Positions 52,201 to 56,183 of a DNA stretch of 64,000 bases are shown here, piece by piece. The DNA lies in the IMG/VR virus record IMGVR_UViG_3300035208_002804, positions 32,001 through 96,000 of that record, one strand, 5' to 3'. Under the pieces are notes generated by a model, which had not been told where the DNA came from, ran no database searches, and saw only the letters and a list, made by a program, of their open reading frames with translations. Numbering within the stretch: the first letter of the stretch is position 1; each line of letters starts with the position of its first letter. The stretch is from a virus (Duplodnaviria > Caudoviricetes). A program made the position numbers and the translations under genes.

Positions 52201-55200
52201 ACAAGAGTTAGACCGGATGTCACCCATTTTAGAGCGTCAACTACTTCGGGTAATGCTTTTGCACCAGCAGTCAAAAACTTGGTAAATCCTTCCATTGTGT
52301 CTTTTTCAGCAAGTTTCGTAAACAAAGATCCAATTGAATCAACTAATCCATCAGTGAAATTCTTGTCTTTGAAAATACTCGCTGCAAGTGAAGACATCGA
52401 CAACCCAAATGCAGATTGAGCATAGGTTACATTTTCCCAACCTTTAACAAGATCTTTCTGGGTAACTCCAAACTTACCCATAATCTCATTTGCTTTGTTT
52501 GCTGATCCACTAAATGCATTTACATAACCAACGTTCTTAAAAACAGTGTTTAAATCAGAAAGTGATCCGGTCAACGAGGTAACAGCACTCGAAAGCGCCA
52601 TGAATATTCCCATTAATGAGAAATAAACACCCATCGAACTCATTGACAAACTTGCTGCTCTCCACGAAAGATCTTTTGACCACTTTGAAGTGTTAGCAAG
52701 TACCCCAAACTTTTCCGGTTCAGTAGTTTTTCTACTATCTAATGTAGTTGATTTTACTGTTCTATTACCCGATAATTCTTCTAACTTCTTATCGAATTCA
52801 CCAATAAAACCTTCTGCATCTTTAGCATCCATTCCAGTTTTCTTTAATCTCTCTGTTAATAATTCAAGACTATATGTTAATGTCCCTGTTATTTCACCAC
52901 TTTTTGAATCTCTTTCGAGTTGTGGAGAAACCTTTACCATTTCACGAGCAACATTACCCCCAAGTCTGTTTCCTAACTTGTTGGCAGTAAAGTCTTTCAT
53001 CTGTTCTTCAATACCACCAACCACATCAGTAAACATTTTTCCTGATGTATCTCGTGCCTTTTTAATAGAACCGGCATAATCTTCTCGTAATTCTTTCCAA
53101 GAAATACCTTTGGTTAAATTAAATGGAGAACCCAAAACCTGTCCAGTAGTTACCCTTGTTTTTTCATAACCAACGTTTTGCGCCCTGTTATAAATTTCAC
53201 TAAACTTACTTCCACCACGATTCATCAATGCGTTGAACTTATTACCAATGCCCTGAACATTGTTATCTTGGTTCCTTACATCATACGGTTTCGCTAATAA
53301 TCCAGTATTATATTTTCTTATACTACCAAGTTCATCATCGTGTCTTGTATTATACTGAAGATCAACGTCATTATAATCACGTAACGCGTTACTTCTATTT
53401 TTGTCTCTTGCTATCTTATTATTACGCACCTCAACTAAAGCAGCAAGTTTTTCCTTTCTTTCTTTTTCTTCTTGTTTACGTTTTGCTGTTTCTTGCTCTA
53501 ATTCTAAATCTATTAATTTTCGATTTGCTAAATCTGCTTCAGATGGATTATAATTAGCATCAATTCCAGAAATATCTGGTATAACATCATAAGGACCACC
53601 TGATTTCTTACTAATCCTCCTTTCAAATGTTGTTATGTTTGGCAAATTTTCATATTGTTTATTTTTACCACTTAATTCATCTGCAAGTTGCTTTCGCCTG
53701 TTTAAATCACTTTTAGATGGATTATAATTAGCATCAATTCCAGAAATATCTGGTAATTTATTATATTTTGTTGCTTCTTGATATTTTCGATTTAATTCAG
53801 CAAGTGATTTATTAGACGTTTCAATTCTCTTGTTGAAATCAATTAGATCAGGACGTATATTATCGAGAATATCAGTTACTTGGTTAACATTGTTCGTGTA
53901 TTTTGTAGTTGATGGACCAGATGGTATTTTACCAGATGTTGCTATGTTTGTTGCAAACGGTTTAAGTTCTTTTTCTATAAAACCAATATATTTAAATGGA
54001 TCTTGTAGAAAACCGGGTTCTCTACCACGTAAACTACCTTCAAGTTGTTTACCAATTTTCATATCAGCAATCTTATTTACAGTAATTCCTTTCTTGAATT
54101 GCTTTGATAATGAATCTGACAGTGTAGTGGCGATTTCATGAGCACTTTTTGTAGGATCAACATTTTTTAGTTTGTTTTCACTAAAACTGTTAAGAATGAA
54201 TCTGGTTAAATCACTCTTACCCATATTACCCATATCTGTTGGTTCTGCATACGAAGTTCTGGTATTTCCGCGAGAAGGCAGATTATTTGAACCGGGTGTT
54301 AATGTAGATTTTCCAAACATTTGATTGTATGATAACCGAGTAGTTCCGGGATCTGCTTTTTGCACAGCATCCTTTATATCACTACGGGTTAACATATCAA
54401 TTACACTGTTTTCATTAGTAATTGGCCGTTTTAAATCATTAATTGAGAACTCACTACCATCTTTGAAACCGGGTATATTTCCACCAGATGCAAATGGTAA
54501 TCTGCTTCGTTCTTTTGGGGATAACACTCTATCATTGGACATTCCTCGTAGTTGATCCAGAATTTTAGGTCCACCTAAAGATGCAGATTGACTTGGATTT
54601 AAGAGCCATTCACCATTGGAAATCATTGCATTAGGACTACCATAACCACCGCTTGCAAGTCCTTTGTATGTAGAATTTCCCGTCACTTTATTGAGAAAGT
54701 TTTCTCCAAGTGCCTGAACAGTATCTCTATCTAAAATGTAACTTCCCGGTGATAAATTTGCTCCAATCGAATCAGATATTGAAGTGCCACGACCTTGAAT
54801 TTTGCCACCAGATGCTCTACCAAATCTCCGTTTTAAGTTAGTCAACCATGAATTTTTATTGAATTGCTGACTTAATCTACCGATATTGGCGTCCATGAAT
54901 GGATTATTTTGGACTACATTTCCATAGGCATCATTAGATTCTCCCTGAAATTGTTTGAGGTTCATTAATTTTTGAAATCGTTTTACTCCATCAGATGTTA
55001 AATCCCCAGAACCAAACCGTTCGAAAAATTTATTTTGTTGGAATCTTTTAATCAGATCGATAGCAAGTGCTCCACCACCAATTCCACCCATAATTCCAAG
55101 ACCAGATTGAATGCCACCAAACGCACCCATTAATAGTTCAGGAGATGCTAACGCTTCAAGCCCACCAGCAAAATATTTCTTCATTTGTCCACCATTTTGT

Positions 55201-56183
55201 TTGAATACTGTGTTATCTAAATTATTGAAATTTAATGAATATCGTCCATTTCCACGATGAGATGCCCCTAACTTTTTGTAATATGTATCAGCACCGGGTA
55301 AACTATCCCAATACATACCTTTCATACCACTTGTTTTTCCATGTGATATCAATTGGGCCATCAATTTTGTAGCAAGCCCTTTTCCACCAAAACCGGGATC
55401 AGTACCTAAATTTGGCATCCCAAAATTCTTGCCATCATTATAGTAGGACAATGCACTTGCTGGTCTTCCTGATGCTTTCTCTATTGCTGCAATCAAGCCA
55501 TAGTGCTTTGCATCTAATTGTTTGTCTTCTACTGCACGAAAAAGTTGATAGTTCCCAGAACTACTACTCATTGAATTAAACGACTTACTATATAGATCCT
55601 TGATAAACTTACTATTTTTACCAAGTTGGAAATGTTTAAAGTCAAATTGAGAACCCATCTGAAACTTCGGTATCATACCACCAGATGCTTTTCCTAATTT
55701 TCCTTGTGCTCTCATCAATGACGACATAACACGGGAATCTCGTGCCACTGCTGATGAAGGTAAATTAAACCCAGTGAGTTGTTTCAATTTTCGGGCCATA
55801 TCTTTGAACACGGCATCATTAGTATGCAGTGAATTAGGATCGAATCCTTTTAATTGCGGAACCATTACATTAGAATTGTTAAATAAAGTGGACGAACGAG
55901 CAGCATGACCTATAGCATCCCTAATTTCACTTGGAACACCTTTATATATTTCAGTTGCTTTATTTGCATCAGCAGTATGCTTATCAAGGTATTCAAATCC
56001 AATTTTATTTTTAGTTATTCTATCTATATTTGAAGATTTCTCCTGATAGTTATAACTTAATAGGAATTTATCTGCCTGTTTCTTGGTATAACCAAATTTA
56101 ACGAGCATGTCCATCATTTCTACTCGTGATGTCCCACCAAGCATCATCTTGGCAAGCCACTTATTTAACAACTCATCCGACAT
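49299..56183 (-). CDS. Tape measure protein (2294 aa) with embedded GNAT domain
   Basis: Follows tail tube and chaperone; long Ala/Gly helical and hydrophobic tracts; FAxGG...GE-x-V motifs typical of TMPs. Confidence 0.8.
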   Translation of the reverse strand: MSDELLNKWLAKMMLGGTSRVEMMDMLVKFGYTKKQADKFLLSYNYQEKSSNIDRITKNKIGFEYLDKHTADANKATEIYKGVPSEIRDAIGHAARSSTLFNNSNVMVPQLKGFDPNSLHTNDAVFKDMARKLKQLTGFNLPSSAVARDSRVMSSLMRAQGKLGKASGGMIPKFQMGSQFDFKHFQLGKNSKFIKDLYSKSFNSMSSSSGNYQLFRAVEDKQLDAKHYGLIAAIEKASGRPASALSYYNDGKNFGMPNLGTDPGFGGKGLATKLMAQLISHGKTSGMKGMYWDSLPGADTYYKKLGASHRGNGRYSLNFNNLDNTVFKQNGGQMKKYFAGGLEALASPELLMGAFGGIQSGLGIMGGIGGGALAIDLIKRFQQNKFFERFGSGDLTSDGVKRFQKLMNLKQFQGESNDAYGNVVQNNPFMDANIGRLSQQFNKNSWLTNLKRRFGRASGGKIQGRGTSISDSIGANLSPGSYILDRDTVQALGENFLNKVTGNSTYKGLASGGYGSPNAMISNGEWLLNPSQSASLGGPKILDQLRGMSNDRVLSPKERSRLPFASGGNIPGFKDGSEFSINDLKRPITNENSVIDMLTRSDIKDAVQKADPGTTRLSYNQMFGKSTLTPGSNNLPSRGNTRTSYAEPTDMGNMGKSDLTRFILNSFSENKLKNVDPTKSAHEIATTLSDSLSKQFKKGITVNKIADMKIGKQLEGSLRGREPGFLQDPFKYIGFIEKELKPFATNIATSGKIPSGPSTTKYTNNVNQVTDILDNIRPDLIDFNKRIETSNKSLAELNRKYQEATKYNKLPDISGIDANYNPSKSDLNRRKQLADELSGKNKQYENLPNITTFERRISKKSGGPYDVIPDISGIDANYNPSEADLANRKLIDLELEQETAKRKQEEKERKEKLAALVEVRNNKIARDKNRSNALRDYNDVDLQYNTRHDDELGSIRKYNTGLLAKPYDVRNQDNNVQGIGNKFNALMNRGGSKFSEIYNRAQNVGYEKTRVTTGQVLGSPFNLTKGISWKELREDYAGSIKKARDTSGKMFTDVVGGIEEQMKDFTANKLGNRLGGNVAREMVKVSPQLERDSKSGEITGTLTYSLELLTERLKKTGMDAKDAEGFIGEFDKKLEELSGNRTVKSTTLDSRKTTEPEKFGVLANTSKWSKDLSWRAASLSMSSMGVYFSLMGIFMALSSAVTSLTGSLSDLNTVFKNVGYVNAFSGSANKANEIMGKFGVTQKDLVKGWENVTYAQSAFGLSMSSLAASIFKDKNFTDGLVDSIGSLFTKLAEKDTMEGFTKFLTAGAKALPEVVDALKWVTSGLTLVGDHPGLIKIAAQMYGITLLLQPLTSGVSLFLSGFGQAAGAVKALKQVNMAVDALNLGMNGIALKAGLAVIALEAVGQAYQWISGQEAPWWLKPISSAGAVLSGVNPITQEKMFAEGGAIGGPNTAAIDDKTVRVEEGEYVINKRSASKLGKNTLDQLNKFATGGSIGLLQNSSGMSVSGYAINKSDTDTFGFKIYNKTDENATASKSSAKVLVAAAESDGIGVYIRNWKDGWQNGNDEKGGMPFDMGLPQRWIYGFLGNPNGMTGNGMGVNPNPSPSPEDNLNEESFWRPDENVNPNPQVNENPNPNANPNPSTLPSSYTGAVANLLQTAFESFKQTVGAAIDSIAHSAMESLKALMNGAETAGNVIKDLGLALLTLDNGKVVEMLQKGAGAVKGAATTVGGNLASAYGGRSLGGILNSDSLAQHAYYRAPGDVKDYGPTGVRNAGFWDKFVNGKYEYPEMPSKQSPSIVDRLFNKGKFSATSPVKGKDQLTGKEIGVLDVVDLLSVGTNVNQNRDPYSAALELNNQIAMNALTGGGERVMEQGSRVLPAMISRVVGSGPARNTAASWAGKAVGGVGATTLDLMKLAGAPEAVVLSGLAEGGIANENFMNGVPLDEITQGTGKGKYNNASGIFTSNLIQSGYGRGMGVWGKRFGLNEEQMRDTLNQNKGLMDFSVMPGFVAQQAVKGLGMSDQYNGFWNKLKGGNTAVSDMIRGTNVSLPTPLGNLEVSGGIADLNSSIYDLIGSLANLDVGSIFGAGTGLIGTGESLGVMGGKLAEEVTQDPAALLSLAMTGIVPVIGPALANMLLPETTAKISTGVNEDDITQPATLQSLNDGMITTAKGFSIVNGELDAVSNEGLPAFYNKLMTGSETYNVNPENNSGNYSFVSKTNENEFTSIQLVKTAETLKQEQIISQSTTQPQKVEISVNVQGDDSNVIASKVKTDLVAMIEQIVRSILPTTQPTTSRL
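53541..53755. repeat. Exact 41-bp direct repeat inside the tape measure gene (53541-53581 and 53715-53755)
   Basis: agatggattataattagcatcaattccagaaatatctggta occurs twice; encodes PDISGIDANYNPS. Confidence 0.9.

Follow-up and report, generated by a model that had tools for sequence, protein, structure and literature searches.

A GNAT-fold domain in the N-terminal cassette region of the giant tape measure protein of an uncultivated, probably archaeal tailed virus

The DNA considered here, called the window throughout, is the whole analysed stretch of 64,000 nucleotides and comprises bases 32001-96000 of a 136,274-bp virus record in IMG/VR (IMGVR_UViG_3300035208_002804; Duplodnaviria, Caudoviricetes), which is rated 95% complete. 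Its minus strand carries an open reading frame (ORF) whose product of 2294 residues is, as predicted from gene order, size, hydrophobic segments and matches to PHROG families, the tape measure protein (TMP) of a siphovirus-like tailed virus. The C-terminal approximately 1200 residues are the conserved ruler or channel part of this protein, and in the N-terminal approximately 1100 residues cassettes follow one another, with a short FA-x-GG peptide between them. One of these cassettes almost certainly has the fold of the GNAT acyl-CoA N-acyltransferases, and its conservation, its possible activity and its possible delivery into the host cell are the subject of this report. The positions of the features are collected in Table 1.

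Table 1. Features of the tape measure gene and of its neighbours, in window coordinates
Feature	Position	Strand	TMP residues	Basis or remark
GNAT acyl-CoA N-acyltransferase-fold domain	55230..55646	(-)	180-318	Pfam, AlphaFold2 model, Foldseek, VIA-align
Motif A: strand b4, acetyl-CoA pyrophosphate loop, start of helix a3 (LGTDPGFGGKGLA)	55356..55412	(-)	258-276	aligns with RimI loop
Motif B (ADTYYKKLG), including Tyr302 (55278-55280)	55266..55292	(-)	298-306	second Tyr aligns with RimI Tyr115
Asp293 in strand b5 (YWDS)	55305..55307	(-)	293	at the position of the RimI general base Glu103 (profile alignment to 2cnm)
Upstream fence peptide KASGGMIPKF	55662..55691	(-)	165-174	likeness to the border peptide of relatives
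Downstream fence peptide YFAGGLEAL	55149..55175	(-)	337-345 (YFAGG, 337-341)	position after the GNAT domain
Three consecutive modules A-S-GG ... S-x-G-E/S-x-V/L	54384..54818	(-)	456-600	match to phrog_11341 and phrog_3547
Fourth module of the same type (FAEGG...EGEYV...FATGG)	51684..51863	(-)	1441-1500	match to phrog_25241 and phrog_13338 at 1425-1527
TMP ORF (P0001)	49299..56183	(-)	1-2294	single open frame, 2294 aa
Conserved TMP core	49302..52880	(-)	1102-2294	hydrophobic segments at 52572-52628 and 49797-49853
Two tail tube genes	57708-58538 and 58635-59738	(-)		upstream of TMP; Pfam Phage_tube_2, 37.0 and 40.1 bits (cut-off 27)
Two genes (153 aa and 576 aa)	46977..49184	(-)		directly downstream of TMP; syntenic in relatives

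The GNAT assignment is reached from sequence profiles and from a structural model. The Pfam family Acetyltransf_1 (PF00583; gathering cut-off 20.7) matches with 22.9 bits when the whole TMP is searched and with 28.1 bits (E 2.7e-6) when residues 150-340 are searched, and three other Pfam GNAT families match the TMP below their cut-offs. In a six-frame search of the whole 136-kb virus this domain is the only Acetyltransf_1 match (29.2 bits, E 9.8e-8), and it is also the one recognisable effector domain in a Pfam and PHROG search of the TMP. A profile of the domain has 34 matches at E<=1 among PDB sequences, all except one of them GNAT acetyltransferases. The AlphaFold2 model, which rests on a shallow alignment of six rows of relatives, has a pLDDT of 78.2 and a pTM of 0.76 and contains the canonical, complete order of GNAT elements, b1-a1-a2-b2-b3-b4-a3-b5-a4-b6-b7 (E9-15, H21-32, H38-48, E57-64, E70-78, E82-90, H99-113, E118-122, H128-133, E137-140, E143-147). 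A prediction for residues 150-340 from the single sequence was unusable (pLDDT 41). With the alignment-based model, Foldseek finds at least 500 matches in the PDB at E<=1e-3, down to 1.2e-7, with a GNAT in every row among the matches listed, and almost exclusively viral GNATs in a viral library. Re-scoring of the top 1000 Foldseek chains with VIA-align leaves 946 at Z>=8, all of those listed being GNATs, and the best match is Escherichia coli RimI (5isv; Z 13.6, rmsd 2.9 Å over 130 residues). A preliminary description of this DNA, made from the letters alone, had placed a GNAT domain in the N-terminal part of the TMP at about residues 180-330 and had named structure prediction as a check. The domain indeed lies in frame at nearly these residues, and since the model has the full topology and Z scores of 12-13.6 to solved GNATs, the proposed fold withstands that check. 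The peptides quoted there are present as well, inside 55200-55650: NLGTDPGFGGKG runs from residue 258 (window position 55412 downward) and YYKKLG occupies residues 301-306 (55266-55283).

Homologous giant ORFs, in the same gene order, are found in independent metagenome contigs, namely L003 and L005 (3309 aa), L006 (more than 2581 aa), L007 (2612 aa) and L008 (more than 1925 aa), and P0003, a database protein of 3490 residues, is a further TMP homologue. By blastp, identity in the TMP core reaches 30-32% with P0003 and L003 and 52% with L007, in alignments of approximately 680-1100 positions. The GNAT domain is kept in five divergent TMP lineages. Acetyltransf_1 scores 23.4 bits in L003, 23.7 in L006 and 27.4 in L008, P0003 falls below the cut-off with 18.4 bits, and the L007 TMP gives no match to this profile. 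When the window protein is compared with P0003, the best-conserved block is the GNAT (residues 182-315), with 50% identity against 31-32% in the core, and the N-terminal flanks cannot be aligned.

The union of GNAT and TMP appears to be genuine and maintained. The stretch 54800-56400 is contiguous and without a single difference in contigs of two runs that belong to different studies, one of a landfill and one of groundwater, either of which may be the source of the window itself. A third strain, a variant from a landfill, spans 55168-56238 and differs at approximately 3.5% of positions; 34 of its 38 classified coding differences are synonymous, as are all ten of those listed within the GNAT domain, and 60 further differences stand outside the 38 classified. 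Together with the GNAT block identities, these substitutions indicate that the domain is conserved under purifying selection. The GC content and the GC content at third codon positions of the GNAT segment equal those of the rest of the TMP gene and therefore give no sign of recent capture. The whole stretch is carried by one landfill and one groundwater run, with partial shares in landfill, groundwater and wastewater runs, and no RNA dataset is listed among those that contain it. It is true that the record is a metagenome assembly and that a 940-bp gene-free gap separates the TMP ORF from a 165-aa ORF upstream on the same strand. An artefact, in which mis-assembly or a wrong frame has joined a GNAT to the TMP or the ORF is not a TMP at all, is nevertheless very improbable, as two runs from different studies and a variant strain carry the junction and independent assemblies of five other TMP lineages have the GNAT in frame with the same core.

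The cofactor loop and the catalytic positions are retained in part. In a profile alignment, LGTDPGFGGKGLA aligns with the cofactor loop VDPDFQRRGLG of RimI (2cnm), and neither the loop glycine nor the LG that closes b4 varies in any of the TMP lineages. Relative to the motif Q/R-x-x-G-x-G/A, the window sequence G-G-K-G-L-A keeps the G and the G/A and has glycine at the Q/R position, and L003 has the full motif, Q-K-Q-G-F-G. In GNATs, binding at this loop uses backbone amides, so that loss of the Q/R need not matter. An acidic residue at the Asp293 position is kept in the window, in P0003, in L007 and in the non-TMP protein P0007 described below; the residue is serine in L003 and L006 and non-acidic in L008 (leucine or alanine, depending on the alignment). 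The tyrosine at the Tyr302 position is kept in four of the five TMP lineages and in both GNATs of P0007, and L008 has histidine there. The RimI counterparts of these residues, Glu103 and Tyr115, are the proposed proton acceptor and donor (PMC3347575). Four of the five lineages have a basic GNAT domain (isoelectric point 9.5-9.7), and a histidine in b1 (FKHF), which is not a classical GNAT catalytic residue, is invariant. To judge from these positions the window GNAT is probably catalytically active; residues at catalytic positions are absent in some lineages, and catalysis therefore may not be universal in the group.

Around the GNAT domain, the N-terminal cargo region differs between relatives. 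The core of L006 is 98% identical to that of L003, and its TMP carries two extra inserts. One of these, of 423 residues, lies just downstream of the GNAT domain (L006:5496-6764 (+), residues 1213-1635), is absent from the L003 TMP and contains a module like an ADP-ribosyltransferase (ART), behind which come a fence peptide and an HD phosphohydrolase domain (23.9 bits in Pfam, against a cut-off of 22). The ART-like module has an ExE motif, the motifs FYHG, SYTAMTF and ESEVLFP, and a protein atlas score of 0.96 to ADPrib_exo_Tox clusters; its Pfam ART matches are faint (E ~0.08-0.09), and a PDB sequence search with the ART/HD insert returned nothing useful. The distant TMP of L008 (L008:5531-11305 (+)), which is 35% identical in the core, has a GNAT at residues 206-286 (27.4 bits) and an HD domain at residues 666-775 (26.7 bits), each fenced by FA(R/K)GG. 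L007 (L007:3386-11224 (+)) is the closest backbone relative: its middle block is 59% identical and its core 52% identical. The L007 TMP is without the first approximately 165 residues of the window protein and begins with a divergent GNAT-like domain, 25% identical to that of the window, which is followed by approximately 430 residues without any match. A short YRGG...EAE stretch in L007, considered by eye as a possible ART, was rejected as too short. PHROG and Pfam searches found nothing for the 224-aa insert of L006, for residues 211-640 of L007 or for residues 321-640 of L008.

The relationships of cargo and backbone disagree, with identities in the GNAT and in the backbone of 50% and 31% for P0003 and of 25% and 52-59% for L007. 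Because of this disagreement, the comparison suggests that cassettes move between TMP backbones. Extra cassettes in the same TMP region are of the HD phosphohydrolase type in two lineages and of the ART-like type in one. The survey of homologous TMPs for swapped cargo that the preliminary description had recommended is in this way borne out, with HD and ART-like cassettes at this position and a divergent GNAT elsewhere, in L007. No HD domain or MCM was found when both were sought in the whole virus of the window.

Outside the TMPs the domain has one significant relative. Among 1.84 billion representatives, P0007 (670 aa, E 2.8e-4, 30% identity) is the only other significant match and the sole non-TMP one. 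It combines a GNAT, a ParB-like domain recognised by eye, a second GNAT and a 2H/Acb1-like phosphoesterase, has repeated YSEDQPRDELGRFGE-GG linkers, and looks, from its predicted domains, like a phage-type polyvalent protein. Scans of IMG/VR with the GNAT peptide and with the GNAT alignment found no relative, a scan of species genomes with GNAT patterns found none, and a tblastn search with the GNAT in 50,697 phage records gave no match at E<=1. A search with the whole TMP gave only two matches, with 5% coverage and to hypothetical proteins, one of which was examined and was uninformative. Word-index protein searches, which cover sequences of up to 2000 residues and are thus blind to giant TMPs, returned only the protein itself, P0004 and P0008.

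The peptide that borders the cassettes approximates [FY]-A-x-G-G-x-I-P-x-[FY] and is common to L003, L006, L007 and L008. In the window a copy of this kind stands on either side of the GNAT domain, and the downstream copy has counterparts after the GNAT in L003 (AFGGD), L007 (LANGG) and L008 (FARGG). The peptide also occurs in a longer module, FA-x-GG ... GE-x-V ... FA-x-GG, and modules of this type recur further along the window protein. The long form is present once in lambda gpH, at residues 733-790 (FATGG...GEFV...YATGG). The processed form gpH* ends at approximately residue 710 (variants of 691-730 were modelled), and the fragment gpHC comprises approximately residues 690-817, with its N-terminal region unresolved (PMC12617516). 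The lambda module therefore sits just past the end of gpH* and within that region of gpHC. By analogy, the fence peptide may be a cleavage or hinge signal. Candidate double-glycine and prohead proteases (Peptidase_C48, Peptidase_C39 and Peptidase_S78) were sought in the virus genome and none was found, so no encoded protease stands behind the idea of processing.

Further features of the ORF and its surroundings are in keeping with a TMP. The ORF matches three PHROG tape-measure families, all partially (phrog_3547, E 1e-8; phrog_25241, 9e-7; phrog_4704, 2.8e-4), and a Pfam scan matched no TMP family. A hydrophobic-window scan finds two membrane-like segments. For residues 1-149 and 316-455, PHROGs and Pfam give nothing, and for residues 341-1101 they give one weak TMP match only, to phrog_4704. 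Two repetitive stretches of the protein are recorded here as observations in their own right. The peptide PDISGIDANYNPS is present twice, 58 residues apart, in a charged and probably coiled-coil stretch (residues 811-881, window 53541-53753, minus strand); the pair is an internal protein duplication, and tandem DNA repeats sought in the TMP gene were not found. A low-complexity linker rich in proline and asparagine (PNPNPSPSP...NPNPNANPNPS) lies in the middle of the TMP core (residues ~1596-1649, window 51366-51389 and surroundings, minus strand). A similar stretch is present in L003, and Pfam Trypan_PARP matches both by composition only.

The order of tube genes, TMP and downstream genes is shared by L003, L007 and L008. 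The two genes directly downstream have counterparts in the same places in L003 (157 and 563 aa) and L007 (153 and 566 aa), gave no match in family searches and probably encode distal tail components, as judged by position. Beyond them lie proteins with PKD, DUF2341 and Laminin_G_3 domains, which are typical of tail tips and adhesins. Among these are three consecutive paralogues of 228, 243 and 249 aa (32250-34410, minus strand), each with a Laminin_G_3 or concanavalin-like lectin domain, and the nearby PKD- and DUF2341-bearing proteins at 38547-40577 and 44942-46924; together they are probably a variable set of receptor-binding proteins. A 377-aa ORF (61951-63084, plus strand) stands on the opposite strand within the minus-strand tail and head module. 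It has several helix-turn-helix matches, with HTH_7 and HTH_Tnp_IS630 above their cut-offs and LAGLIDADG_3 below its own, and may be a mobile insert of the homing-endonuclease or transposase type.

The host of the virus is probably archaeal, as predicted from its replication genes. A family B DNA polymerase (a frame of 1182 aa) adjoins a PCNA-type sliding clamp just before the window start (G000:C1:28859-31555), and among the control genomes the PCNA_N model matches only the four archaeal ones. Labels of metagenome-assembled genomes were discarded as host evidence: L007 is binned with Saccharibacteria and L008 with Syntrophaceae, and these conflicting labels likely reflect mis-binned viral contigs. 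Also encoded in the early or replication half of the virus are an RtcB RNA ligase and three glycosyltransferases of family 2, of which one is a fusion with a radical SAM domain (window 2890-7597 and 13696-14889, plus strand).

A search of the literature for a GNAT within a tape measure protein found no description, and the published enzymatic cargoes of TMPs are peptidoglycan hydrolases and the RNA polymerase of Thermus phage P23-45 (PMC10770324). The pre-early genes of P23-45 are transcribed by a virion RNA polymerase, which occupies the N-terminal portion of gp96, a TMP of 5002 residues, and is present in the particles (Chaban et al. 2024, PMC10770324). Like gp96, and its equivalents in P74-26, G20c and TSP4, the window TMP is a giant protein in which a cytoplasm-type enzyme at the N-terminal end precedes the ruler and membrane part, and the action of the gp96 enzyme on entry means that N-terminal TMP cargo can work in a host. 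The gp96 cargo is a two-barrel RNA polymerase of approximately 1100 residues, whereas the window cargo is a GNAT of 140 residues known here from sequence and model. Unlike that of gp96, the cargo region consists of several cassettes, with repeated peptides as fences and a content that varies among relatives, in a virus with a probably archaeal host. Wall enzymes of the peptidoglycan hydrolase type are another cargo that the TMP carries inside the tail and sets free during infection. They act outside the cytoplasm, need no cofactor and lie near the C-terminus at the tail tip, whereas the GNAT occupies the head-proximal N-terminus and needs acyl-CoA, and therefore must reach the cytoplasm.

The second group of comparable systems is the polyvalent proteins, in which RimI-like GNATs, often beside ART domains, are found in proteins for which packaging and injection were predicted (Iyer, Burroughs, Anand, de Souza and Aravind 2017, PMC5512222). 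As would be the case with the TMPs of the relatives, strings of effector domains in one polypeptide travel with the DNA, and 2H, HD-like and other phosphoesterases are common among them. Polyvalent proteins are tied to packaging in the head, to MuF or portal proteins or to transfer by type IV secretion systems, whereas the carrier here is a TMP without a MuF or portal domain; tape measure proteins are not mentioned in that study (PMC5512222). The polyvalent trait of at least two effector domains is found in L006 (GNAT, ART-like and HD) and L008 (GNAT and HD) and is not found in the window TMP. Among individual enzymes, RimI, the N-alpha-acetyltransferase of ribosomal protein S18, has the same size and topology as the window domain (Z 13.6 for 5isv and 12.8 for 2cnm). 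The identity is only 14-15% and many GNAT subfamilies are near-tied in Z, and orthology is not implied. The toxins AtaT, TacT and KacT are encoded by stand-alone genes beside an antitoxin, whereas the window GNAT is internal to a protein of 2294 residues, and their Z scores of 12.3-12.9 are no higher than those of other GNATs. The ART Alt of T4, packaged in the head, and the GNAT Rac of phiKMV-like phages (PMC7824862) covalently modify proteins of the host when infection begins. Alt belongs to the head, Rac is made once the phage has entered and does not travel in the virion, and neither is part of a TMP.

These comparisons suggest a route by which the GNAT could act in the host. The tail channel is filled by TMPs, whose C-termini lie in the tip and around which the tube polymerises; their expulsion precedes that of the DNA and gives rise to a conduit across the envelope (PMC11445458; PMC12617516). 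The window TMP would likewise occupy the lumen of the tail, the C-terminus lying at the tip and the N-terminus beside the DNA end, and would leave ahead of the genome at infection. The N-terminal cassettes would then reach the cytoplasm, the sole compartment that offers acetyl-CoA, and before viral gene expression the GNAT would there acetylate a macromolecule of the host, most likely a protein. Related viruses would send the HD phosphohydrolase and the ART-like domain by the same route. By analogy with P23-45 and the polyvalent proteins, delivery is plausible; that the GNAT is delivered and acts early in the host is about as probable as not. Host chromatin, translation or defence proteins, which the preliminary description had proposed as targets, are guesses. 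The explanation as a whole, an active GNAT cassette in the TMP together with its delivery, is considered somewhat probable. A more far-reaching version holds that the TMPs of this clade are processed polyproteins that are cut at FA-x-GG, so that the enzymes (GNAT, ADP-ribosyltransferase and HD phosphohydrolase) are freed in the lumen and shot into the archaeal cytoplasm ahead of the DNA, where the GNAT acetylates a specific chromatin, translation or defence protein of the archaeon within seconds of adsorption. This version is speculative and, on the present comparisons, rather doubtful.

Several points weigh against a delivered and active GNAT. TMPs are mostly seen as an envelope channel, so that a complete passage of the N-terminus into the cytoplasm may not be the general case. 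The Pfam score lies barely above its threshold, and single matches among PDB sequences are weak (best E 0.0035). The Q/R of motif A is glycine in the window, the acid at the base position is absent in L003/L006 and in L008, and L008 has also exchanged the tyrosine for histidine. No protease able to free the cassette was found among the three families sought in the virus. By our own reasoning, three or six folded domains of 15 kDa would have to fit, or to unfold, in a lumen a few nanometres wide; the published width of 3-4 nm is that of the lambda trans-envelope channel and not of the tail tube (PMC12617516), and the packing of the RNA polymerase of P23-45 raises the same question (PMC10770324).

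Part of this evidence would suit a catalytically dead GNAT fold with a structural task, as a head-proximal spacer or plug or as a docking site for a chaperone, the terminator or the DNA end. The lost Q/R, the two lineages without the acidic residue and the one without the tyrosine could all be read in this way, the basic isoelectric point in four of the five lineages suits contact with a DNA end, and the invariant b1 histidine lies outside the classical catalytic set. A pure spacer, however, needs neither the loop glycines nor the aspartate and tyrosine that are kept in the window, P0003, L007 and P0007, the cassette of L007 stands elsewhere, at the very N-terminus, and the HD and ART-like additions in L006 and L008 argue for enzymes over spacers, which makes a dead fold improbable. 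The same additions, being typical of injected effectors, speak against a GNAT that works in the producing cell during assembly and is then trimmed at FA-x-GG or carried along as a passenger. Such a role would draw on the cleavage of both lambda gpH (PMC12617516) and T5 pb2 (PMC10038345) in tail morphogenesis, on the FA-x-GG module that lambda has beside its cleavage region and on the fencing of the cassette on both sides by that peptide. It is unlikely, as the cut fragment remains in the particle in lambda (PMC12617516) and T5 (PMC10038345), the N-terminal enzyme of P23-45 is present in virions (PMC10770324), and a TMP at three to six copies per virion would be an odd dosing for an assembly-time enzyme.

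If the GNAT is delivered, its substrate could also be something other than a protein, such as tRNA, whose acetylation would block translation as with the AtaT, TacT and KacT toxins, or a small molecule, for which a defence signal and a polyamine are candidates. The structures of AtaT, TacT, KacT and GmvT have Z scores of 12.3-12.9, within 1.3 of the best, the basic isoelectric point fits an RNA substrate, and the sequence and fold searches also bring up acetyltransferases of thialysine and spermidine. These Z scores are near-tied with those of protein acetyltransferases (RimI, NatC, Gcn5 and Sulfolobus PAT), however, and the fold does not discriminate between them. The domain is embedded in a structural protein without an antitoxin partner, and the polyvalent-protein GNATs, to which it is linked via P0007, are placed in a RimI-like, protein-modifying clade (PMC5512222), so that a non-protein substrate is quite unlikely.

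The GNAT of the window would thus represent, as predicted from its sequence, a TMP-borne enzyme of the cytoplasmic type, that is, the logic of the polyvalent proteins on a tail ruler, in a probably archaeal virus. Acetyl-CoA is found only inside cells, and because the GNAT needs it, a conserved and apparently competent GNAT in the head-proximal part of the TMP implies that this part reaches the host cytoplasm; for siphoviruses, how far TMPs reach is a matter of debate. Taken with the HD and ART-like cassettes of the relatives, the finding would extend the single experimental case, the RNA polymerase TMP of P23-45, towards a broader principle in which pre-made effectors travel through the tail lumen, and towards probably archaeal viruses, whose early takeover of the host is almost uncharted. 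The fenced cassettes suggest that TMPs tolerate foreign cargo at defined junctions, and as small, defined and expressible domains they have targets that could reveal new weak points of methanogens and other anaerobic archaea. If the processed-polyprotein version were true, the tail lumen would be a general, cassette-swapping system for effector delivery.

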